Part shown: piece after piece, positions 35,359 to 48,309 of the stretch | Numbering within the stretch: the first letter of the stretch is position 1 | How the letters are laid out: each line of letters starts with the position of its first letter | Source of the DNA: Candidatus Levybacteria bacterium RIFCSPHIGHO2_01_FULL_36_15b | GTDB lineage: Bacteria > Patescibacteriota > Microgenomatia > Levybacterales > UBA12049 | Assembly: GCA_001782045.1 (NCBI GenBank) | Contig: MFNK01000003.1 | Location: 101,905-165,904, forward strand | Direction of reading: 5' to 3' | Length of the DNA: 64,000 nucleotides | Notes under the pieces: model-generated | What the model saw: the letters and a program-made list of their open reading frames with translations, nothing else | Told to the model about the DNA's origin: nothing | Database searches by the model: none | Program-made: the position numbers and the translations under genes

Positions 35359-35386
35359 CAATTCGACAAGCTTAGTACAAGCACTT

Positions 35387-35552: not shown

Positions 35553-35580
35553 CATATTAGGCACGCTCAGCGTAAACAAA

Positions 35581-37927: not shown

Positions 37928-39520
37928 TTGAAGCATTTAATCATATCTGATACGATTCTTAAAATGTCTAAGGCCTTATTTCTATCACTCTTTGTTAGTA
38001 TTTTAATATTTATTTTTTTTATTACAGTAAATATAAATTTACCATATGTCGGACCTAATGCAACAAATTTTAATGTATATTCTCTGATTGCTCATAACTT
38101 TAATAAGTTCGGGTATTTAGAAACAAAATTAGCTCCAATTATTTCTGTAAGCGAAAAATATCCTGCAAATCCTGAATATTTTTTCCACCACCCTACTCTA
38201 TTGTCTTTTACAGAATCTATACTTTTTAAAATATTTGGTGAGCAGTTTTGGGTAGGAAGACTCACGGTAATTTTATTTTCTTTAGGATCTTTATTTCTTA
38301 TTTATCTGATAGGAAAAAACTTATTGAACGAAACTTTCGGAGCAATCTCGGCTTTGGTTTTTACGCTTATCCCCGCGTCAACAATATGGGGGAAAATGAT
38401 TGGTCAAGAACCGCTAGTTTTATTCTTTTGTCTTGCAGCCCTGTACTGCTCATTGATTTTTCTTGAGAAAAAAGAAAACAAGTATCTTATTCTAGCTGGT
38501 ATATCGTTGATTCTGGGAACGTTGAGCGACTGGCCTGCAATAATTTTTGCATTCTCGCTAATTTTTCTGTTCAGGAAGTATAGTGAGGTGCGTAAGTATT
38601 CTTACGTACTAGTAGTTGCAGTAGGAATGTTTTTACTTCTACTTTTCTATACATACTTTTTAAGAAATGGATTCTGGGATTTACAAAATGCCATTGGATT
38701 AAGAACTGCATTAGGGCTTTCAAAAGACTGGTTATTTTTCTTGCCCACGCAGCTTATTAGAATTTTAATTTACCTAAATTCATTATTTGTTTTGTTTACC
38801 ATTGCAGTTGGTTTATATATTTATAAAAAGAATAAATTTAAGAATTTGGACAAAACAAGCTTGACCCTTTTAGTATTTTTTTCTTTCTTTTTAATTCACC
38901 AATTATTGTATGCTCAAGCAGTATTTTCCCATAACTATCTTTTGTATTACAGCATACCTTTTTTTGCATTCGGTTCTTCCTACTTAATCTATATTCTTTA
39001 TACGAATAAGCGTTATACTTATCTATCTTTAGCAATTCTAACTTCGTTTATATATTTGATTGTTATTTCCGATTACAAAAACAAACAGGTAGAATCAAAT
39101 TTGTGGAGGTACGAATTTGCCCAAAAAATTTCTTCTTATATTCCAAAATATGAAACTGTAGTTTTAAATCAATCGTATTCAGTTGATCCTGATTTGCTTT
39201 GGTATCCATTTTCAATAAACGTGATGGTGAGTGACGATAAGAGCGCAAATTTTTATTCAAAAAACTATAAATATTATATTTATTCCTGCATAGATTCATG
39301 CCCAACAAACATAAAATTATTGAATACATTAGGAAGCGAACATAAGACTACTCGCATTAAGACAACTCAGGCAGAAGCATATGTTATTTACCTCAATGAG
39401 AAAAAAAATGATGAAGATTATGTTTTTCTAAAAACAAGCCCATCGAATTTATTGGATGGAACTTTTGTAAAAAAAATATACAATAATCTACGGAGCCTTT
39501 TATATACATCTCAAATCTAG
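37928..39520 (+). CDS. polytopic membrane protein, putative GT-C fold glycosyltransferase (ArnT/PMT-like)
   Basis: 530 aa, ~12 TM, N-terminal periplasmic loop with acidic/aromatic residues, architecture typical of GT39/GT83-like enzymes. Confidence 0.4.
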   Translation: MKHLIISDTILKMSKALFLSLFVSILIFIFFITVNINLPYVGPNATNFNVYSLIAHNFNKFGYLETKLAPIISVSEKYPANPEYFFHHPTLLSFTESILFKIFGEQFWVGRLTVILFSLGSLFLIYLIGKNLLNETFGAISALVFTLIPASTIWGKMIGQEPLVLFFCLAALYCSLIFLEKKENKYLILAGISLILGTLSDWPAIIFAFSLIFLFRKYSEVRKYSYVLVVAVGMFLLLLFYTYFLRNGFWDLQNAIGLRTALGLSKDWLFFLPTQLIRILIYLNSLFVLFTIAVGLYIYKKNKFKNLDKTSLTLLVFFSFFLIHQLLYAQAVFSHNYLLYYSIPFFAFGSSYLIYILYTNKRYTYLSLAILTSFIYLIVISDYKNKQVESNLWRYEFAQKISSYIPKYETVVLNQSYSVDPDLLWYPFSINVMVSDDKSANFYSKNYKYYIYSCIDSCPTNIKLLNTLGSEHKTTRIKTTQAEAYVIYLNEKKNDEDYVFLKTSPSNLLDGTFVKKIYNNLRSLLYTSQI

Positions 39521-39534
39521 TAAAATACACATAT

Positions 39535-39605
39535 TGCCGAGTCGTCTAATGGTAGGACAACGGACTTTGGATCCGTTTATTCTGGTTCGAATCCGGGCTC
39601 GGCAG
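39535..39605 (+). tRNA. tRNA-Gln (anticodon TTG); no CCA
   Basis: TGCCGAG/CTCGGCA acceptor, loop CTTTGGA, T-loop TTCGAAT. Confidence 0.8.
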
Positions 39606-39649
39606 CTTTCCCTTTAAATTTACTACCTCGTCTGCTATAATTCCCTCCT

Positions 39650-40075
39650 ATGATTGAACAACGTTTCAGACAGCGTACTGAAGAAGAAGGTAGAGAGTAT
39701 TTAGCAAAATGGGAAAGCCTTTTTTTGGGCATGCTTGCTGCTTATACTAAAACTGGACGTTCCTTTTATGATCTTGAACCCTTAATAGAATTTGTGGGAC
39801 CGGAAGGAAAGTTTACAGTTGCTCCGATTGCGTACTTAATAAATAAAGATATTAATCCCAGGATTATAACAGTGGACATATATAGAGACGGCGAGGTTAT
39901 TCAAAGGGCAATGGCTTTAGCGACTTGGGAAAATGGCAGGCCAACTGTTAGGCGTGAAGATATTGATCAAAGAACGACTTTGGGATACGAGCAGTATAAT
40001 TTTGATCAATTTATTGATTTAGCGGCGAGGGCTCTAAATAATCCTGAAATACCCGATAGTTCCCCTTCCAACTAA
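39650..40075 (+). CDS. hypothetical protein (141 aa)
   Basis: Intact ORF, no motif recognised. Confidence 0.4.
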   Translation: MIEQRFRQRTEEEGREYLAKWESLFLGMLAAYTKTGRSFYDLEPLIEFVGPEGKFTVAPIAYLINKDINPRIITVDIYRDGEVIQRAMALATWENGRPTVRREDIDQRTTLGYEQYNFDQFIDLAARALNNPEIPDSSPSN

Positions 40076-40196
40076 AAAACAATCTCATCTGAGTTTAGAT
40101 AAAGACACTGCTATAATGACTAAACGGATCTTGACCGGTATGCTCAGCATAATCGTTCTTCGAATTTAACTTAAGTAAAAGTAATTAAGAATCGAA

Positions 40197-40547
40197 CTAA
40201 GTCCTGCTTCGGGGTTTATGTTTCTTGTGATATTCCCATAATTCAGTAGGCGCACTGTCTTCTTTTGTAAGTAAGGCGATAGGTATTCTTGACGGTAATT
40301 CAATCCAATGCCCATCAAGTCCGCCAGTTATGTGTATTAACACCGAACTATTGAACCCAACTCTAGGATTTGACAAAACTTCATCTCCAGTTGCCAAAAT
40401 GTCTCCAATTTTTAATGCTCTCGGTTGAGCTAGTCGCTCAGTTCTTAAAAGATTTGTGCCATTTCCGTATTCCTTTAGGTGTCTTTCAAATCCATAAGGC
40501 CTACCATGTTCATCCATAGGTCTACCTGGTATTTCTCTTTCTGCCAT
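40197..40547 (-). CDS. hypothetical protein (116 aa)
   Basis: Intact ORF, no motif recognised. Confidence 0.4.
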   Translation of the reverse strand: MAEREIPGRPMDEHGRPYGFERHLKEYGNGTNLLRTERLAQPRALKIGDILATGDEVLSNPRVGFNSSVLIHITGGLDGHWIELPSRIPIALLTKEDSAPTELWEYHKKHKPRSRT

Positions 40548-40657
40548 AAAAAAATGCTCTTTCGAGCAGTTGAAATATGTTACATCCGGTAAAGTTTGTT
40601 GTCAATAGTTAAGGTCACTAAATATTGGGTAAATTCTGATATAATAATTCGGTTACC

Positions 40658-40729
40658 CGGGGTGTAGTTCATCGGTAGAACGCTCGGTTTGGGACCGAGA
40701 AGTAAGAGGTCCAATTCCTCTCACCCCGA
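40658..40729 (+). tRNA. tRNA-Pro (anticodon TGG); no CCA
   Basis: CGGGGTG/CACCCCG acceptor, D-arm GTTC..GAAC, loop TTTGGGA. Confidence 0.85.
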
Positions 40730-40738
40730 CACTAAATC

Positions 40739-41038
40739 TTATTTACCTCCAAAATACCAAATTCCACTTACAATTCCTAAGTTGAGGGTGAATATTAATA
40801 TTTGACTAAAGAAAATCCAAGTCTTGTGATGTTCTTTCCAATAAAATAGCCATAAGAAAGATGAAATTGTATAAGCTCCCCAAGTAGTAAAAGATAATCC
40901 TGCAACGTCTTGCTTTGTCCATACCTGTAAAAATTGAGGAATAGTAAATAAAGGACCTAAGAAGGCAACGATATACATTATATGATCAAAAAGACTTACC
41001 GGTTTTTTATGAAGATGCTGGTGCATTCCTTGCAACAT
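40739..41038 (-). CDS. PQ-loop / SemiSWEET-like 3-TM sugar transporter candidate
   Basis: 99 aa, three TM helices, PQ motif in TM1 (FTIPQFLQVW), Trp/Tyr-rich like SemiSWEETs. Confidence 0.5.
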   Translation of the reverse strand: MLQGMHQHLHKKPVSLFDHIMYIVAFLGPLFTIPQFLQVWTKQDVAGLSFTTWGAYTISSFLWLFYWKEHHKTWIFFSQILIFTLNLGIVSGIWYFGGK

Positions 41039-41195
41039 AGAGTTATCGTATATTAATTTTAAATTCTTGACAAGATAAGAGCTCCTGACGTGATCTTAGC
41101 CAGACTGCCAGAGTTTATCAGATTGTTCCTATCTGACGGTCTATTACCGGATTTAGTCTATACCTTAGGTCTAAAAAATGCATAAATATGCATAG

Positions 41196-41861
41196 TTATA
41201 AATCTTTCCAGTTAATAAGTTTGATTCTTAAATTTTTAACTTCCTGTGCTATTCTTTGAGAAGTAAGTGTTTTTAATTCTAGCTCGCGCTGCTCAGAATA
41301 GGAACTTTTAAGATCAGCGCTCAATATTCCAGGATGGCACATTAGTTCAGACGTGCCTTCTGGCAAGCTGTTGAGAATTTTAACTAGATTTGCGATAGAT
41401 ATAGCTTCCATTGACGGCATACCAAAGAAAGAATTAATGAAATTAATTTGACCTCGGTAGGGTATGTAATTCTCTTTACACCACTTGCGGATAAATGGAT
41501 AAATCCTTGGCATCTTATGAATATGATGGTGACCATCTATGTGATCGGGTAGCATTCCCACCAGTTTATTAAAAGCGTCTATCTGATTAAGAAACTCCTT
41601 CTTGGTTTTTTCTATAAGTACCGAGGCAATTACTCTTTTAGTTTGCCAAAGTGCTGTAAAATCATCATCTTCAATTTGAAAGTGGAGTCCTAGGCTAAGT
41701 TTTGGATTTTGTTTTGCAAGCCTTACTCCATGTAAAGCTGCCTTACTATTTACCATAAGAGAAGTGCTAGTGACTATGCCATCTCGATGAGCTTTGACTA
41801 TTCCTTCGTTAATTCCATTGGAATAACCAAAATCATCAGCATTAACAATAAGCCTTTTCAT
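41196..41861 (-). CDS. ChbG/YdjC-family carbohydrate deacetylase
   Basis: N-terminal LIVNADDFG box and His-rich metal site (DGHHHIH) typical of YdjC/ChbG. Confidence 0.75.
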   Translation of the reverse strand: MKRLIVNADDFGYSNGINEGIVKAHRDGIVTSTSLMVNSKAALHGVRLAKQNPKLSLGLHFQIEDDDFTALWQTKRVIASVLIEKTKKEFLNQIDAFNKLVGMLPDHIDGHHHIHKMPRIYPFIRKWCKENYIPYRGQINFINSFFGMPSMEAISIANLVKILNSLPEGTSELMCHPGILSADLKSSYSEQRELELKTLTSQRIAQEVKNLRIKLINWKDL

Positions 41862-41981
41862 TACTGTATATTTTAACAGAAGTTCGACTCCCGTAAGGGT
41901 GTTAGGTTATAGGGTTAAATTTAGACAAATTTTAGAACTCTTCCGAAGCTAAAACTTGCAAAGTTCGATCTTTTTCTATGG

Positions 41982-42052
41982 AGCGGGTGAAGGGAATCGA
42001 ACCCTCGTATCAACTTTGGAAAAGTTGTGTTCTGCCATTGAACTACACCCGC
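41982..42052 (-). tRNA. tRNA-Gly (anticodon TCC); no CCA
   Basis: RC GCGGGTGTAGTTCAATGGCAGAACACAACTTTTCCAAAGTTGATACGAGGGTTCGATTCCCTTCACCCGCT. Confidence 0.85.
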
Positions 42053-42092
42053 GTAAAGAATATTATACTAGACTGAACTTATTTGCTCAAGA

Positions 42093-42929
42093 TTATATTA
42101 TTTCAAATAGAAGTTTAAATACTTCGTAAAAACCCCAAAGCGCCAGTACTATAAATGCCAGTCCTCCGATAATTAAAACAACAGGATGACGTACTACTTG
42201 GACCGTCTTTGAGGGCCAAATAAACAATCCAATATTTAAAATCATATGCCCAAGCATTACTCCTAATGCAAATCCAAATAAATTAACTACGTCAAAAAGA
42301 GGAATATAACCTGCAAAATCATCTAAGCCCAAAATAAACGGAATGGTAAAAGAAAAAACCGCCAAGTTTGTAAAAGAAAGTTTTTTTGCACGTGTTAAAT
42401 TAAGGTGAGGAACAAAATATCTAAGAATAGGTCGGAATAACTTATTTACAAAATTTAATTGAGACTGAAGAAGATACACCGGCATTTTAATATCTATTAA
42501 GAAGCTTTTTCTTTGTTTAAGAAATTCTTCTAAGCTTTCCTGAGCCATTCTAAGAAGTACAATAGAGGCAACAAAAATCATAATCATCATTAGAAATGGA
42601 ATTTCTTTAAATACTACCCAAACGATTAAAACTGCAAACGTTCCGAATGCATTCCCTACAGCCGTTCCAAGCTCTATTGCAATTCTTTTTTGCCAACCGG
42701 GGTTTGTATGCATTAAATTGCCGATAAATATTGCAAAGTCTATTGCGGTTTTAAGATAAATAGCAATTCCGATAAGAATATCCCGTTTTCTAAAATCTAA
42801 AACTATTTTGTCAGTTAAGGGAAATGTATTTAAAATTAAAAGAAGTCCGTACAAAAGCGTTGAAAGGACAAAAAATGTAAGAATTGTTAATGCAACCGGG
42901 ATAACTTGACGAATAAAAACTTTTTTCAT
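42093..42929 (-). CDS. integral membrane protein (8 TM; TerC/DUF475-like?)
   Basis: 278 aa, highly hydrophobic; family assignment uncertain. Confidence 0.4.
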   Translation of the reverse strand: MKKVFIRQVIPVALTILTFFVLSTLLYGLLLILNTFPLTDKIVLDFRKRDILIGIAIYLKTAIDFAIFIGNLMHTNPGWQKRIAIELGTAVGNAFGTFAVLIVWVVFKEIPFLMMIMIFVASIVLLRMAQESLEEFLKQRKSFLIDIKMPVYLLQSQLNFVNKLFRPILRYFVPHLNLTRAKKLSFTNLAVFSFTIPFILGLDDFAGYIPLFDVVNLFGFALGVMLGHMILNIGLFIWPSKTVQVVRHPVVLIIGGLAFIVLALWGFYEVFKLLFEII

Positions 42930-43002
42930 TGATAAATTCTATACGATTATACAATAATATTTAACTTTCGTTCTGAACTTATTTTTGCTAAAATACAAAC
43001 AT

Positions 43003-43075
43003 GGCCCTGTAGCTCAACGGATAGAGCGAGTGCGTTCTAAGCACCAGGTTGGGGGTTCGATTCCCTCCAGGGTCG
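43003..43075 (+). tRNA. tRNA-Arg (anticodon TCT); no CCA
   Basis: GGCCCTG/CAGGGTC acceptor, loop GTTCTAA, T-arm GGGGG-TTCGATT-CCCTC. Confidence 0.85.
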
Positions 43076-43195
43076 CAGAAAAACTTTCGTGAGCTTTAGC
43101 TTGTGGGAGTTTTTTGCGTCTTGCAGTAATCGAACCTGCCGGACGAACGTTAGTTCGGAGGCGGGGTCGCGAAGCTGCGAAGCAGAACTTGTGAC

Positions 43196-43217
43196 TTCGA
43201 TTCCCTCCAGGGTCGCA
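43196..43217 (+). repeat. 22-nt exact direct repeat of the tRNA-Arg 3' end (TTCGATTCCCTCCAGGGTCGCA; first copy 43056-43077)
   Basis: Identical 22-mer 118 nt downstream of the tRNA, not in a cloverleaf context; flanked by short hairpins and an 8-nt inverted repeat GTGAGCTT/AAGCTCAC (43089/43225). Confidence 0.6.
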
Positions 43218-43243
43218 CTTCGGCAAGCTCACAACAAGAAAAT

Positions 43244-44455
43244 CTATCTAGTAATTCCAAGCAGCGGATACTCATCCCACAAGCTGGCTATATATAAGCA
43301 GTTAAAAACTACCCCTAAGGTTATAAGCAAAATTGCGGGTTTTGAAAGTTTGGGTTGCAAAGATGGTATAAGCATTAAGAAAAGAAACGGCAAAAAATCC
43401 AAAGCATAACGGTAGCCAAATTGTGCAAATCCAATGCTATACCAGGTAAATATCGGAAGTGCGATTGCCACAGTTGTAACTAGAGATGGTACATAGTACA
43501 AATTTCGCTTAAAGCGGAAAAGTAGCAGGAATAATGGAGATGTAAACCAGATTGCCATTCCCCACGGATCCGCCTTAATAAAAGGAAATTTAAATACAAA
43601 ACCGTCACGGAAATATAAAATTGGTTCAGGTGGTTTTACAAAAAAGCTATATAAGTTTGCCGGAATATGAATTAATCCCCTCTCTGCATATTCTTTATTT
43701 TTAGACAGAGGATATGGGTCTTGAATATGGTATCCATATCCGGTTTCTGTAAATGAGTTAAATCTTAAGTAATTATAACCTCCATATACTAGACCAAAAA
43801 ACATTATTGGTATAAAAATTAGCGCGATTTGCTTTTTCGATAAGCGTTTTTTTATAAATTCTATAAAAAAGAATATAGCTGCAAGCACTAGGGTTATCCT
43901 TGTTAACATTGCAAGCCCTAAAAGAATACCCATAACAAGAGGTCTTTTTTTTGAAAAGTATTCAGCCAAAGCAAGCAAAATTAGTGGCATTCCAATTGCC
44001 TCTACAGTATAGGAAGTTATATTAATTACGCTCGTTGAAAAAAGAACGGTTGAAAATACAAAAAATAAAGAAAGCCATAAGGAATCAACTTTGCTAAACT
44101 TAAATGATTTCGAAATAGAATAGACTGCAAAAAAAGAAATTATTAGTCCCACTATTCCTAAGACAACTTGCGGAAAGCTCTTGCCTAAAATAGCAACTGC
44201 AGGTATAAGAATAATTGAGGCAAGAGGACCAAAGTAAATATAATACTTCCCATTGTATATAGAGATATCCCCCACCGGTAAGTCTAAATTAGGCTCAAGC
44301 GATATATGACCTTTTAAAAATTGCATTGCCAATAAGTTAAGTGATATATCCCAGTTATATATTGCTGCTGTTTTTAAAATTAGAAAAGCGGAAAAAATTG
44401 CAAAAATTAAAAGCGCAAAAAATAATATCTTTTTGTTCTTTTCTTGCATATGCAT
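43244..44455 (-). CDS. polytopic membrane protein (403 aa), GT-C-like glycosyltransferase candidate
   Basis: ~11 TM, aromatic-rich loops; no soluble domain. Confidence 0.4.
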   Translation of the reverse strand: MHMQEKNKKILFFALLIFAIFSAFLILKTAAIYNWDISLNLLAMQFLKGHISLEPNLDLPVGDISIYNGKYYIYFGPLASIILIPAVAILGKSFPQVVLGIVGLIISFFAVYSISKSFKFSKVDSLWLSLFFVFSTVLFSTSVINITSYTVEAIGMPLILLALAEYFSKKRPLVMGILLGLAMLTRITLVLAAIFFFIEFIKKRLSKKQIALIFIPIMFFGLVYGGYNYLRFNSFTETGYGYHIQDPYPLSKNKEYAERGLIHIPANLYSFFVKPPEPILYFRDGFVFKFPFIKADPWGMAIWFTSPLFLLLFRFKRNLYYVPSLVTTVAIALPIFTWYSIGFAQFGYRYALDFLPFLFLMLIPSLQPKLSKPAILLITLGVVFNCLYIASLWDEYPLLGITR

Positions 44456-44534
44456 AATAGAGTTTTATCTTAATGACAATAAAAAAGCAAGAAGTGTTAA
44501 ATAAAGCTGAAAAATATTGTATAATCTAAGGCAC

Positions 44535-44610
44535 GGTGGATGTAGCTCAGCAGCAGAGCGCCTGGTTGTGGTCCAGGAGGTGGCGGGGGCGGCACCCGTC
44601 TTCCACCCCA
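44535..44610 (+). tRNA. tRNA-His (anticodon GTG) with encoded G-1, C73 and 3' CCA; atypical T-loop
   Basis: G-1 + GTGGATG acceptor, D-arm GCTC/GAGC, loop TTGTGGT, acceptor 3' CTTCCAC (one T-T mismatch), C73, CCA; T-loop GGCGGCA non-canonical. Confidence 0.6.
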
Positions 44611-44617
44611 CAACGTT

Positions 44618-45166
44618 ATGCCCGCAATTAATTTTGAAGTAAAGCTGATTAAAATTAGGGATTGGACAATTATTAGGCTTCCGGAGAGTGTATCAGCAAA
44701 GCTTCCCTCCAGGGGCATGACAATGGTTTCTGGAACCATTAATGGTGCTTCTTTTAAAACATTACTTGAACCGGATGGAAGGTATGGTCCAGAAAAAAAA
44801 CCCAGCCACTGGTTTAGGCCTGACAAAAAATTGCTGGGTGAGGCTAGAGCAGCGGCAGGTGATACCGTACGAGTCTCGCTTGAGCCGACCAAAGAGTGGA
44901 TAGAGCCTGAAGTTCCCGAAGATTTGAAGAAAGCTCTTTCGACATCCAGAAGAGCAGAAGATTTATGGAATGATATTACTCCACTTGCCCGTTGGGACTG
45001 GATTCGCTGGATACGAGCTGTTAAAACAGCTGAAACGCGCCAAAAGCATATTGAAGTGGCTTTAGACAAGCTTAACAAGGGCATGAGAAGACCATGCTGT
45101 TTTAACCGCAATTTGTGTAGCGAACCCTACGTATCGCACAATTGGGTTCTCCTCGATCCGAGTTGA
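44618..45166 (+). CDS. DUF1905 + YdeI/OmpD-associated (OmdA) family protein
   Basis: C-terminal WDWIRWIRAVKTAETRQKHIEVALDKLNKGMRRPCCF resembles YdeI/OmdA family ending. Confidence 0.5.
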   Translation: MPAINFEVKLIKIRDWTIIRLPESVSAKLPSRGMTMVSGTINGASFKTLLEPDGRYGPEKKPSHWFRPDKKLLGEARAAAGDTVRVSLEPTKEWIEPEVPEDLKKALSTSRRAEDLWNDITPLARWDWIRWIRAVKTAETRQKHIEVALDKLNKGMRRPCCFNRNLCSEPYVSHNWVLLDPS

Positions 45167-45217
45167 AATGTGGACAAATATTCGGCAGCTACCCACTATT
45201 TTTTGTATAATTAGAGC

Positions 45218-45760
45218 ATGGTAGATAAAAAAGAGGGGCTTCAACCAAAAGTTATTGACAAACAAGAAGTAGTAAATAGACTGAGACTTGCAAACGAGGA
45301 TTTAAGGGAAACAATTTCGAGAATTGACTCTAGAGATCTAGAAAGAACGCAGGTAACAGATGAGGGATGGACAGTCAAGGATGTTCTTAGTCATTTGGCA
45401 GCGTGGAACACCCAATATCTTATTGAAATTAATGGAATTTTACGAAATGATGCTTCTTGGCAAAAATTTTATGAAGATAAAGCGGGAGAGGATGAATTTA
45501 ATAGACTTGCTGTAGAGGAAAGAAAAGCAAAGCCGTTCTCTCAAGTTTTTGACGAATGGAGCTCTTCGATAAATAGAGTTATTGAGAGAGTTGAAGCTTT
45601 GTCCCTCGCCGAGTGGATTTATCAAAGCGGAAGCGATGTATGGAGCGATGGTAGTCCTATAACTGTGTATTCTCTTTTTAACTATAGTTACAATAATAAA
45701 CCTCATGAGGCTGGTCATGCTCAAGCCATAAGAGAACGTCTTGGATTGGATAAAAATTGA
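45218..45760 (+). CDS. DinB/YfiT-like (ClbS/DfsB-type) four-helix-bundle protein
   Basis: VLSHLAAWNTQYL ... HEAGHAQAIRE His-containing helices typical of DinB_2 superfamily. Confidence 0.45.
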   Translation: MVDKKEGLQPKVIDKQEVVNRLRLANEDLRETISRIDSRDLERTQVTDEGWTVKDVLSHLAAWNTQYLIEINGILRNDASWQKFYEDKAGEDEFNRLAVEERKAKPFSQVFDEWSSSINRVIERVEALSLAEWIYQSGSDVWSDGSPITVYSLFNYSYNNKPHEAGHAQAIRERLGLDKN

Positions 45761-45839
45761 CCTAGATTGTCACTTTACTCCATCATATACTATACCCTAT
45801 AGTTTGACTTTAATGTTTGCTTTTGTTAAACTTTCTCAC

Positions 45840-46868
45840 ATGAATATAGAAATTGATAAACTTTATGGACCAGAATTCCTTATGAGTAATGAGGAAAGAC
45901 CCATTGGGGAACAAATTGGGAATCTCATTTCTGCTATAGGTAATCATGAAGCCAAGGCATTAACATTACTTGCTATGAAAGATGGCGCTATTTACAACAA
46001 GCATGAATTGTCGGCGCGTATAAGAGAGCTACAAGGACGTAATCCCATCTGGCGTCAGAGCTATTCCCTTCCGTTTGATTATTGTGCGCATTCTCTTTCT
46101 CCGATAGGTTTAGTGACAAGAGAAATATTAAGTCCCAATTTATCTGCTTATGGATATCAGATATCTGAATATGGTAGACGAGTTGGAATTCCGTTTGCTG
46201 GTCTTCTACTTGATTTTTCTGATCAGAATAATATTTCGTTGGAAAGACTTTTTGCTTCAACTGCTTCAAGTTCTAAAAAGGAAAATAAAGAAGATAAAAG
46301 AAGAGCTCCATCTACTACATTATCGATTATGCGGAAGATTCATATTTTAGAAAAAAATTCAATTTCCCTTATAGAGTTATTGGATATGTTCAAGGATGTT
46401 AAGTCCCATATAATAGTTAGGCATATAAAAAGACTGGCAGAAATAGGACTACTTAATTTAGAAGCGGGAAACTTAACCGCATCAGATGATCAAAGAATTA
46501 TATTTACTGATCTTTTGGAAAGAATAGATAGGTTTAAGATTGGAGACAGGGAGGTAATAGAGAAGGCGCAAGTTTTAGCCGATGGTATTGTTTATGACTC
46601 TAAAAAGTTTTCTTCTTTAATGGGAAGAGCAAAAGAAAATTCTGGACATGCTTCTAGTTCATCTCTGGTCGAAACGAAAAAAATGATTTTCTCTATCTTA
46701 TTTGGAATGAGTGGAATGAGCAACATTCAAATAAGACAAGAACTGGAAAAACAATACGATAAAAAACTAAAACTTCATACAGTTGAAAAAATAACTAGCG
46801 CTATGGTAAAGGAAAATATGGCGAAAGTTATAAAGGAAGGAAGGCATTTGAAATATTTTTTGGACTAG
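45840..46868 (+). CDS. hypothetical protein with three winged-helix-like repeats (start uncertain: 45741/45813/45840)
   Basis: Three ~60-aa segments each with helix-turn-helix-like pattern (ALTLLAMKDGAIYNKHELSARIREL; ISLIELLDMFKDVKSHIIVRHIKRLAEIGLL; NIQIRQELEKQYDKKLKLHTVEKITSAMV). Confidence 0.4.
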   Translation: MNIEIDKLYGPEFLMSNEERPIGEQIGNLISAIGNHEAKALTLLAMKDGAIYNKHELSARIRELQGRNPIWRQSYSLPFDYCAHSLSPIGLVTREILSPNLSAYGYQISEYGRRVGIPFAGLLLDFSDQNNISLERLFASTASSSKKENKEDKRRAPSTTLSIMRKIHILEKNSISLIELLDMFKDVKSHIIVRHIKRLAEIGLLNLEAGNLTASDDQRIIFTDLLERIDRFKIGDREVIEKAQVLADGIVYDSKKFSSLMGRAKENSGHASSSSLVETKKMIFSILFGMSGMSNIQIRQELEKQYDKKLKLHTVEKITSAMVKENMAKVIKEGRHLKYFLD

Positions 46869-47046
46869 TTTGCAATCCTCTCAAATCGAATCTGACATAG
46901 ATTGTCGTATTTTGTTCTCTTGATTTTCGTATAAAGTTCTATTATTCTAACCTTATGCTGTCCTTCGATTTCGCTCAGGATTATAAACCCACTTTATCAT
47001 TTCAAGAAAATCCTCAGAATTTATATTTTTTGGTTACTTTTATAAT

Positions 47047-48309
47047 ATGGATCGTTTAATACTTCATATCGATTTTGATTCTTACTTTGCATCCTGTGAA
47101 CAACAATTCAACCCTAGCCTGCGGGGAAAGCCTATTGGAGTTACAGCTACAAATGGAAGAACTTGCATAATCGCAGCATCAAGGGAGGCTAAAAAACTGG
47201 GTATTAAATCCCCTAGCGTTACATGGGAAGCGCTAAATTTGGTCCCTGATATGATTTTTGTGCCGGCAAGCTTTACAAAGTATTGGGAAATAACTCAAAA
47301 GTTTTTAAATATTTGCAAAGACTATTCTCCATATGTAGAGCTTTTCTCGCTGGACGAAGTTTTTATGGACATCACAAATACACAATATTTATTTGGTGGT
47401 AAAGAGCAAATTATAAAAACAATTAAGGAAAGAATAAGGAATGAAATAGGAGAATACATAACCGTATCTGTTGGTATTTCCTACAACAAGCTTTTAGCAA
47501 AGCTTGGATCGGGCATAAACAAACCCAACGGAGTTTTTGAAATTACAAGACAAAATCTTGATGAAGTTTATCAAAACATAAAACTAACGGATATCTGTGG
47601 AATAGGAGAAAGGATTGCAATTAGGCTTAAAAAGTTGGGTGTTTATAATTTTCTAGACTTAAGAGAAATTCCTCAGTTAAAATTAAAAAAAGAATTTGGG
47701 AATGTTGAATCTTTATTTCTTCATGATTTAGCTTTTGGCATTGATGCATCTAGTGTTATCCCCTACTATTTCGAGGATAAAGTTAAATCCGTCGGAAGAA
47801 ACTATTGCCTTCCACATAATGAGTATGACAAAAGAATTATTTTTCAAAATGTTTATGAACTTTGTGAAGAAGTAACTCTTAAGCTAAGAAAGCTTAGTAA
47901 AAAAGCAAAGACGGCTTTTATCTATCTTGGAGGCACTAAAAGCGTACACGGTAGGAAAACAGTTACGGATTATTTTGAAAGCGGAAAAGACTTATTTAAT
48001 ATTTGTAATCTTATTCTTAAGGATCATGATTTTATTCTAGAGCCAGATGACTACATAAGAAGAATAAGCGTAGGGGTATCAGGCTTAATAGATTTATCAA
48101 ATATTCCCCTTTCTTTATTTGAAGCGGAAGCCAAAGGACAAAATTTGTTAAAAACTATCGATAACCTTAACTACAAATTTGGGGATCATACTATAAGAAA
48201 TGGTTTTTTGCTTTACGCGGATAAACTTACAACGGTCCCAAATGGTTATATGGCAGATAAATTTGAAAGAACAAAGCTTGCTAGAGCTACGCAATTTGAT
48301 TTTAGTTAG
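47047..48309 (+). CDS. dinB: Y-family DNA polymerase IV
   Basis: ILHIDFDSYFASCEQ N-terminal catalytic box, SLDEVFMD, little-finger domain. Confidence 0.85.
   Translation: MDRLILHIDFDSYFASCEQQFNPSLRGKPIGVTATNGRTCIIAASREAKKLGIKSPSVTWEALNLVPDMIFVPASFTKYWEITQKFLNICKDYSPYVELFSLDEVFMDITNTQYLFGGKEQIIKTIKERIRNEIGEYITVSVGISYNKLLAKLGSGINKPNGVFEITRQNLDEVYQNIKLTDICGIGERIAIRLKKLGVYNFLDLREIPQLKLKKEFGNVESLFLHDLAFGIDASSVIPYYFEDKVKSVGRNYCLPHNEYDKRIIFQNVYELCEEVTLKLRKLSKKAKTAFIYLGGTKSVHGRKTVTDYFESGKDLFNICNLILKDHDFILEPDDYIRRISVGVSGLIDLSNIPLSLFEAEAKGQNLLKTIDNLNYKFGDHTIRNGFLLYADKLTTVPNGYMADKFERTKLARATQFDFS

Follow-up and report, generated by a model that had tools for sequence, protein, structure and literature searches.

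A gene-less insert at a tRNA-Arg gene of a Levybacteria genome: a probable miniature member of a family of tRNA-targeting cassettes

The stretch of DNA analysed here (the window) comprises 64,000 nucleotides of a Candidatus Levybacteria genome, has a GC content of approximately 35% and contains 17 tRNA genes as predicted by ARAGORN. The closest relatives of the proteins encoded around the locus belong to Candidatus Levyibacteriota/Patescibacteria. One of the tRNA genes, tRNA-Arg(TCT), is followed at a short distance by a second copy of its own 3' end. The features of the locus, all given for the forward strand, are the following.

43003–43076, forward strand: intact tRNA-Arg(TCT), recognised by ARAGORN and Rfam (59.5 bits)
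43056–43077, forward strand: repeat copy 1, which covers the T-loop (from T54), the 3' strand of the acceptor, the discriminator and 2 nt more, and belongs to the functional tRNA
43075–43117, forward strand: hairpin A, with a stem of approximately 17–19 bp that starts from the last bases of the tRNA, an A-run on the 5' side and UUUUUU on the 3' side; lineage- or target-specific
43118–43127, forward strand: variable linker, poorly conserved among the window, L032 and L022
43128–43136, forward strand: antisense 9-mer AATCGAACC, complementary to GGTTCGATT of the tRNA T-arm/T-loop
43130–43195, forward strand: conserved 66-nt core, GC-rich, 95.5% identical in L022/L035/L036 and nearly invariant with respect to L032
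43135–43165, forward strand: hairpin B, in the core
43166–43195, forward strand: hairpin C, in the core
43184–43195, forward strand: junction 12-mer AGAACTTGTGAC, identical to the last codons and stop (E, N, L, stop) of the GIY-YIG ORF in L016/L028
43196–43217, forward strand: repeat copy 2, a displaced tRNA 3' end without a T-stem partner, directly contiguous with the native trailer
43218–43243, forward strand: native tRNA trailer (CTTCGGCAAGCTCA...), which reaches the stop codon of a convergent 403-aa gene

The 22-mer TTCGATTCCCTCCAGGGTCGCA, to which the sequence-only reading had drawn attention, is indeed repeated exactly at 43056–43077 and 43196–43217, with a spacer of 118 nt (43078–43195). 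No third copy with up to three mismatches was found in the window, and none of 100 shuffles contained a matching repeat, so that none is expected by chance. The same reading had stated that no cloverleaf surrounds the second copy, and neither ARAGORN nor Rfam detected one; the GTGAC in front of it is unable to supply a T-stem. Of the window's 17 tRNAs, tRNA-Arg(TCT) is the only one with a significant partial duplicate. The insert (43078–43217) thus consists of the 118-nt spacer and the 22-nt repeat, 140 bases in total, and has no ORF of its own; two ORFs that overlap it (43014–43232 on the minus strand and 43089–43409 on the plus strand) were dismissed, since each runs into the tRNA or the convergent gene and neither is similar to GIY-YIG proteins. 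The convergent gene (43244–44455, minus strand), located between tRNA-Arg and tRNA-His, encodes a multi-pass membrane protein of 403 aa with no Pfam domain, which has hundreds of homologues in CPR genomes in non-conserved contexts.

A metagenome scan with the 22-mer yielded 22 stretches, most of which carry a tRNA-Arg with a single 22-mer and the trailer directly after it. At such empty sites (L015, L018, L023 and others) the tRNA-Arg has the same sequence as in the window, and the same type of trailer stands directly 3' of the tRNA in L026, L018 and L023. One of these stretches, L023, is syntenic with the window, with the same order of twelve tRNAs, an upstream 278-aa gene with 87.5% protein and 77% DNA identity, and a tRNA-His which, together with the following gene, is 77% identical. 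Directly behind tRNA-Arg, L023 has CTTCG..., as the window has behind copy 2; the 403-aa gene is missing there, tRNA-Arg and tRNA-His being 27 nt apart. In L010, a homologue of the convergent 403-aa gene (81% amino acid identity) is encoded, and tRNA-Arg lies 11 nt from its stop with no insert. Synteny via this neighbouring gene was otherwise mostly uninformative, since gene order is poorly conserved. Look-ups by exact protein for the window's own gene and for its 99% relative returned no record. A third empty site, L029, is the counterpart of L032, which carries an insert.

The tRNA-Arg locus is therefore polymorphic for the presence of an insert, with empty alleles in L023, L010 and L029 and filled alleles in the window, L032 and L016. 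The empty site that the sequence-only reading had suggested looking for in relatives was thus found, and the emptiness of the close relatives L023 and L010 bears out its view that the 22-nt repeat marks an insertion into the 3' end of the tRNA. Exactly 118 + 22 nt have thus been added in the window by comparison with its nearest relatives, unless the latter have lost them precisely; part of the presence/absence pattern could have arisen by precise deletion between the repeats instead of insertion.

Other copies of the insert, another check proposed at the outset, were recovered as a whole insert in L032 and, by BLAST comparison against all fetched loci, as the 66-nt core in L022, L035 and L036. 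In L032, two exact 22-mers lie 125 nt apart at tRNA-Arg, and the insert is 79% identical to that of the window (99/126 columns). Homology between the two loci (86.6% over 239 nt) takes in nothing but the tRNA, the insert and copy 2, at whose end it stops; the flanking genes are unrelated, so the contexts are non-syntenic. The core (43130–43195) is approximately 94–95.5% identical in L022, L035 and L036, where it stands behind a different gene, tRNA-Gly(TCC). The arrangement there is a complete tRNA, a different terminator-like hairpin (analogous in position to hairpin A but unrelated in sequence), a short linker, the core ending in GAACTTGTGAC, and a tRNA-Gly tail. This tail, TTCGACTCCCCTATC(C/A)CGCTC, corresponds to the 3' end of the local tRNA-Gly from T54 (21/21 in L036 and 20/21 in L022), and the junction, GAACTTGTGAC followed by TTCGA, is that of the window, in which the core likewise ends in GAACTTGTGAC directly 5' of copy 2. 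A covariance model (R2), which describes the 66-nt core and the junction GAACTTGTGAC directly before a tRNA tail from T54, recognised four copies only in 248 kb, namely those of the window (115.7 bits), L022 (109.5), L036 (108.6) and L032 (108.4).

The genome that carries the core at tRNA-Gly is distant, the sole coding DNA alignable between the window and L022 being approximately 65% identical. A non-coding core conserved at approximately 95% in a distant genome and absent from close relatives argues for horizontal mobility, while the fact that the repeat is always the tail of the local tRNA indicates that the target, and no fixed att sequence, is its source. The alternative that the sequence-only reading had set against itself, i.e. 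the same arrangement in relatives with neutral drift and no element elsewhere, is not what was observed, since close relatives are empty and the element occurs elsewhere. An orphan junction was also noted in L017 (3100–3202), where GAACTTGTGAC and the 22-mer of the tRNA-Arg tail occur in a 6.1-kb contig with no tRNA-Arg; the junction is preceded by a perfect 33-nt palindrome, and the other strand contains a short ORF whose start (…YYHIYNRGVEKRKIF) resembles IS200/Y1 transposases by eye, with no Pfam match.

The insert is structured, as had been proposed, and comprises hairpin A and the core hairpins B and C. Hairpin A (-17.6 kcal/mol, z -3.95) has a sequence common to the window and L032 that differs from the tRNA-Gly copy; its five substitutions between the window and L032 are all one-sided and keep pairing (G-U to A-U or G-C). 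Stable hairpins ending in a U-run (U6 in the window, U7 in L032 and in the tRNA-Gly copy) are found in all three lineages, although a consensus terminator scan called none of them, and on its predicted fold hairpin A looks like an intrinsic terminator, possibly a bidirectional one. The fold belongs to the tRNA-sense strand, because on the complementary strand its G-U pairs would turn into C-A mismatches, and this strandedness suggests that hairpin A acts as RNA, most simply as a terminator.

Two further motifs named by the sequence-only reading were located in the core, the hairpin CGAAC-GTTA-GTTCG at 43144–43157 and the tandem GCGAAGC-T-GCGAAGC at 43170–43184. The 8-nt inverted repeat that it described is also present (GTGAGCTT, 43091–98; AAGCTCAC, 43225–32) but is incidental rather than a feature of the element, since its right arm lies in the native trailer (also found at the empty site L026: CTTCGGCAAGCTCA) and is absent from the homologous inserts of L032 and L022. 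A minimum-free-energy pairing of GTGAGCTT with AAGCTCAC was rejected for the same lack of a right arm in L032 and L022; the conserved fold is the local hairpin A, inside which GTGAGC pairs. Kink-turn and tRNA-minihelix readings of hairpin B, considered from sequence alone, were unsupported.

In the predicted fold of the core, 7 bases of AATCGAACC can pair with the T-loop of copy 2 to form stem 1, which closes a three-way junction with hairpins B and C that has no unpaired junction bases and whose branch point coincides with the boundary between the element and copy 2. In the tRNA-Gly copy the 9-mer is AGTCGAACC, complementary to GGTTCGACT, and thus changes with the target. All six within-stem substitutions between the window and L032 keep pairing, and in the window, L032 and the tRNA-Gly copy every one of the 75 pair cells holds a standard pair, a single compensatory change following the target. 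This covariation in stem 1, one position in three sequences, is suggestive and not significant, as it is reached by 159 of 500 shuffles. Copy 2 is exact (22/22) in the window, L032, L016/L028 and L017 while the insert has diverged by approximately 21%; by our own calculation, the chance of 22/22 at such divergence is approximately 0.006 per pair. Copy 2 is therefore either constrained or regenerated at each insertion.

With Rfam models, both at the gathering threshold and at E<=10 (42900–43400), the tRNA alone gave matches, and no ribozyme, tmRNA or tRNA-like family did; six related loci likewise returned tRNAs only. A tmRNA, a tRNA-like RNA, a group I intron and a small ribozyme were accordingly rejected, as no model matches, the tRNA runs on without interruption and the junction lacks an unpaired core.

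A coding counterpart of the insert occupies the same site in L016 and L028 (identical to each other), where two 22-mers lie 340 nt apart at tRNA-Arg and the insert consists of a 72-nt leader and an 88-aa ORF with a GIY-YIG domain (PF01541, 9e-15). The protein resembles the UPF0213 structures 1zg2 and 1ywl and belongs to the minimal stand-alone Slx1-like GIY-YIG type without auxiliary domains (PMC1564403). This ORF ends in GAG AAC TTG TGA C (last codons and stop), the very sequence found just before copy 2 in the window, L032, L022 and L017, and positions 43184–43220 of the window are identical to L016 (37/37). Variants of the junction are kept in other tRNA-Arg cassettes (L046, L063, L037). 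Neither a GIY-YIG gene elsewhere in the 64-kb window nor any ORF in the insert was found, and a search for viral relatives of the GIY-YIG protein returned none.

The GIY-YIG family is large, with 2134 cluster representatives (E<=1e-10). It is also highly conserved, with a mean column identity of 63% and invariant catalytic Y, Y, R, H and E residues. In six of seven look-ups picked by protein alone, the ORF lies 80–130 nt after a tRNA (Arg twice, Glu-TTC, a CAT-anticodon tRNA, Tyr and Asn), the seventh contig being cut in the leader. Behind the ORF, copy 2 is exact in L016, degenerate in L037, L046 and L041 and gone in L038, L047 and L057, the Arg and CAT cases being those in which it is exact or degenerate. 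Many metagenome contigs (L047–L063) were also seen to end 90–260 nt upstream of GIY-YIG genes, within the leader or the tRNA, which is consistent with assembly breaks at multi-copy sequence.

The cassette leaders share two stem-loops, with 95% of cells paired and compensatory changes in 11 of 18 pairs, a level reached by 0 of 500 shuffles. A covariance model built from these leaders (R1, hairpins A and B of the leader) recognised an unseen cassette, L063 (43.7 bits), but did not match the window and L032 inserts even with filters off (best -0.5 bits). Nor was homology detected between the 5' two-thirds of the window insert and the GIY-YIG leaders, the alignment score being matched by 17% of shuffles. 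Homology of the insert to these leaders was therefore rejected as unproven. In L016 and L063 the ORF starts with ATGAACTT and ends with AACTTGTGA, a short direct repeat that could mediate loss or gain of the ORF.

Taken together, these observations make it probable that the window insert is a gene-less, non-autonomous miniature member of a family of homing cassettes that target tRNA genes at the start of the T-loop (53/54). Among the options offered by the sequence-only reading, a miniature non-autonomous element fits best, given the empty relatives, the core elsewhere and the GIY-YIG version at the same junction. The insertion, the occurrence of the family at two different tRNAs, the derivation of the repeat from the target and the junction in common with the GIY-YIG cassette are direct observations. 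Descent from an ORF-bearing cassette is more indirect: the window element is most likely an ORF-less derivative of the GIY-YIG cassette, in view of its insertion at an identical site, its parallel layout and 12 junction bases which the cassette uses as coding sequence. By analogy with intron loops, the reverse history, in which an ORF invaded a pre-existing non-coding element, would be equally compatible.

As to mechanism, homing through the repair of a break has the best support; in this model, the element would supply a replacement 3' end of the tRNA (copy 1), so that the tRNA is kept intact, followed by the terminator-like hairpin and by the 66-nt core abutting the displaced native tail (copy 2). 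A nuclease would cut both strands of an empty tRNA gene within its T-loop DNA, and repair of the break would copy the element from a filled allele, with the tRNA body as the left homology arm and the displaced tail of 21–22 bp as the right arm. Such portable arms would permit entry into the same tRNA gene in genomes with unrelated flanks, and arms that work in any genome with that tRNA fit the unrelated flanks of the window, L032, L016 and L017. The likely nuclease is the putative 88-aa minimal GIY-YIG protein, coded by the cassette at the same site and junction and by related cassettes located behind many other tRNAs; the window copy, which has no ORF, would need the nuclease in trans or may now be immobile. 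The constant left boundary of copy 2 at T54, in two tRNAs, points to the likely break site, and the repeat presumably stops at the end of the tRNA because donor and recipient flanks diverge there. The decayed tails of some cassettes may represent old immobile copies. However, a protein of 88 aa that consists of the catalytic domain only has no obvious means of site recognition, and the filled allele still carries an intact tRNA, so that its escape from recutting is unexplained; both points speak against homing. The link to the GIY-YIG cassette is weakened by the 5' two-thirds of the insert, which show no detectable homology to the cassette leaders, and by the lack of a GIY-YIG gene in the window, and is based on the same site and the 12 junction bases.

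A rival idea is that the ORF-less elements form an independent family with a mechanism unrelated to GIY-YIG proteins, their right junction having been captured or shared by recombination at the same hotspot. The failure of R1 to recognise the insert, the sharing of just 12 non-tRNA bases with L016, and the presence at these sites of further small inserts, unrelated but likewise bearing tRNA-tail repeats (L026, L063, L022), are all in keeping with it. The 12 bases, however, hold an identical position with respect to copy 2 and are the last codons of the ORF in L016, L063 and L046, and a chance 12-nt match at a fixed position is expected with a probability of approximately 6e-8 (own calculation), which makes an independent origin unlikely.

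An improbable reading, too, is that of a structured RNA beneficial to the host, for example a tRNA terminator combined with a small RNA, a processing element or a tRNA-like 3' tag, and kept by selection. The core is GC-rich in a genome of 35% GC, folds stably (z -2.95) and is nearly invariant, substitutions in its stems keep pairing, and the terminator-like hairpin A has G-U pairs that work on the tRNA-sense strand only. Nevertheless, the insert is dispensable, as it is lacking in the closest relatives L023 and L010, its distribution fails to follow relatedness, and it matches no Rfam family; moreover, if hairpin A terminates transcription, transcripts of the tRNA would not extend into the core, in front of which no promoter-like site was seen. 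A host-beneficial RNA role for parts of the element, such as the terminator, is possible.

It is also conceivable, if quite unlikely, that the core serves as a nucleic-acid guide that can be retargeted between tRNAs by a few base changes, with the 9-mer pairing with the target as RNA or single-stranded DNA, the three-way junction exactly at the insertion point conferring site specificity on a structure-specific minimal GIY-YIG nuclease that lacks a DNA-binding domain, and the tail repeat acting as a portable arm.

The explanation first suggested by the repeat, a tyrosine-integrase scar or cis-mobilisable remnant with the 22-mers as attL and attR and the cargo deleted down to 118 nt, has fared worst and is now very unlikely. 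Islands that integrate into tRNA genes classically have, as their identity block, a direct repeat spanning T-loop to 3' end, and the 22-nt repeat is exact and flanks the insert. The absence of an integrase noted by the sequence-only reading was confirmed by a Pfam scan of nine ORFs within approximately 5 kb (37928–48309), and no filled site carries one either; the integrase-bearing island that might have been expected at the same tRNA in other genomes was not encountered at any filled site, and the coding relative L016/L028 carries the 88-aa GIY-YIG ORF only. The 22-mer is absent from 2.9 million viral contigs (IMG/VR), as are the core and the junction, so a phage attP was rejected. A core of approximately 95% identity at tRNA-Gly with a tRNA-Gly repeat is incompatible with a fixed attP and would require a complete recent change of attP that left the rest of the element unaltered. 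The likeness to tRNA-integrating islands and prophages therefore extends to the flanking repeat of the tRNA 3' end from the T-loop and to the restoration of the tRNA by the element, whereas the present element differs in its size (140 bp), in the lack of an integrase among its relatives and in a core found at two tRNAs with local repeats.

The homing cassettes favoured here have their nearest parallel in SegB of phage T4, a free-standing GIY-YIG homing endonuclease in a tRNA gene cluster, which recognises a 27-bp site with the conserved TpsiC stem-loop motif of tRNA genes at its centre (PMC2330249). In both cases a GIY-YIG gene lies among tRNA genes; SegB spreads by break repair into alleles without it, and the insertion boundary described here is exactly at the T-loop start. 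SegB, however, is a phage protein with a DNA-binding region, whereas the present protein has a catalytic domain only (88 aa, UPF0213/Slx1-like), occurs in cellular CPR genomes and is known from sequence; in addition, the elements described here are flanked by a tRNA-tail repeat and include ORF-less forms. In fungal mitochondria, free-standing GIY-YIG and LAGLIDADG homing endonuclease genes are associated with 3'-terminal partial duplications of atp6 or cob (PMC6279837). The layout there is similar, with a complete host gene, an endonuclease gene or its remnants and a displaced partial 3' copy, and ORF-less remnants are common; the hosts are protein-coding and the duplications hundreds of bases long, while here the host is a tRNA, the repeat measures 21–22 nt and a non-coding core is conserved.

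Like MITEs, the window element is short, ORF-less and structured, has near-identical copies at different loci and genomes, and has a plausible coding relative. Unlike them, it shows neither terminal inverted repeats nor a short target-site duplication of fixed length (the ends were read in three copies), and occupies a specific position in tRNA genes with a target repeat of 21–22 nt. Patescibacterial tRNA genes also harbour group I introns, which are self-splicing and inserted in the anticodon loop at 35/36 (PMC13011429). They, too, are selfish elements inserted into tRNA genes in this phylum, but the tRNA described here is uninterrupted and the insert is below the size of a group I core and matches no intron or ribozyme model.

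Several other peculiarities of tRNA genes were observed in these genomes. Mirror-image cassettes consist of a tRNA 5' fragment (approximately 1–26) with a GC-rich hairpin in the D-loop, a GIY-YIG ORF of a different subfamily and a complete tRNA. They were located as follows.

L026: at tRNA-Arg
L032, 7780–8170, and L036: at tRNA-His
L014, 5250–5640, minus strand: at tRNA-Glu-CTC
L022: at tRNA-Gln

In L016 (oriented 1950–2610), a 166-aa ORF with an HNH motif lies between a 5' fragment of a canonical tRNA-His and a complete tRNA-His; its match to Pfam HNH_3 is weak (E 3.3e-4, below the curated cutoff), its stop falls inside the tRNA, and the complete tRNA-His has unusual D- and T-arms. The tRNA-His of the window (44536–44610) departs from the canonical T-arm in lacking a TTCGA T-loop (GGCGGGGGCGGCACCCGTC), and its Rfam score is only 41 bits. 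Similar T-arm variants occur in L016 and L023, and a canonical T-loop in L031, L032 and L036; the variant of the window could be resistant to nucleases that target the T-loop. Shorter 5' duplicates with no intervening ORF precede a complete tRNA-Asn in L060 (80–160; 12 nt, approximately 40 nt upstream) and a complete CAT-anticodon tRNA in L041 (1700–1815; 14 nt, approximately 105 nt upstream).

Small inserts of a second family (...TTTAyyCTGAGyGAA...GAGTCG...) likewise have a partial tRNA 3' end behind them. Members of this family produce a third copy of the tRNA-Gly tail in L022 and interrupt copy 2 behind the GIY-YIG ORF in L063.

L022, 3480–3560, minus strand: second-family insert
L026, oriented 1460–1570: second-family insert
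L063, 366–420: second-family insert

A trailer motif, approximately (C/A)TTCGACAAGCTCAGTGyAAnC, follows many tRNA genes (Arg, Phe, Val, Pro, His, Gly), in the window at 43218–43240, 35360–35385 and 35554–35580 and at many other loci. The trailer of tRNA-Gly-TCC in the window (41862–41978, minus strand) contains GAGTCGAACTTCTG, a 14-mer antisense to the T-arm region of tRNA-Val(GAC), as well as GATCGAACTT; both could have been left by a similar element or have arisen by chance (E 0.013).

The searchable literature yielded no report of GIY-YIG cassettes or of miniature elements at the tRNA genes of Patescibacteria, and this family of selfish elements targeting tRNA genes is apparently undescribed so far. 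The tRNA genes of CPR/Patescibacteria appear to be colonised by tiny selfish cassettes, comprising minimal GIY-YIG genes, HNH genes and ORF-less derivatives, each of which retains one intact tRNA and leaves a partial tRNA copy. This bears on annotation, with regard to the partial tRNA copies and contig breaks beside these genes, and provides a testable role for the large, uncharacterised UPF0213-type GIY-YIG family. With respect to mechanism, a 66-nt non-coding core that is 95% identical across distant genomes and found at two target tRNAs is a compact candidate for study. With respect to genome evolution, the retention of an intact tRNA may account for the tolerance of such insertions by reduced genomes with single-copy tRNA genes.
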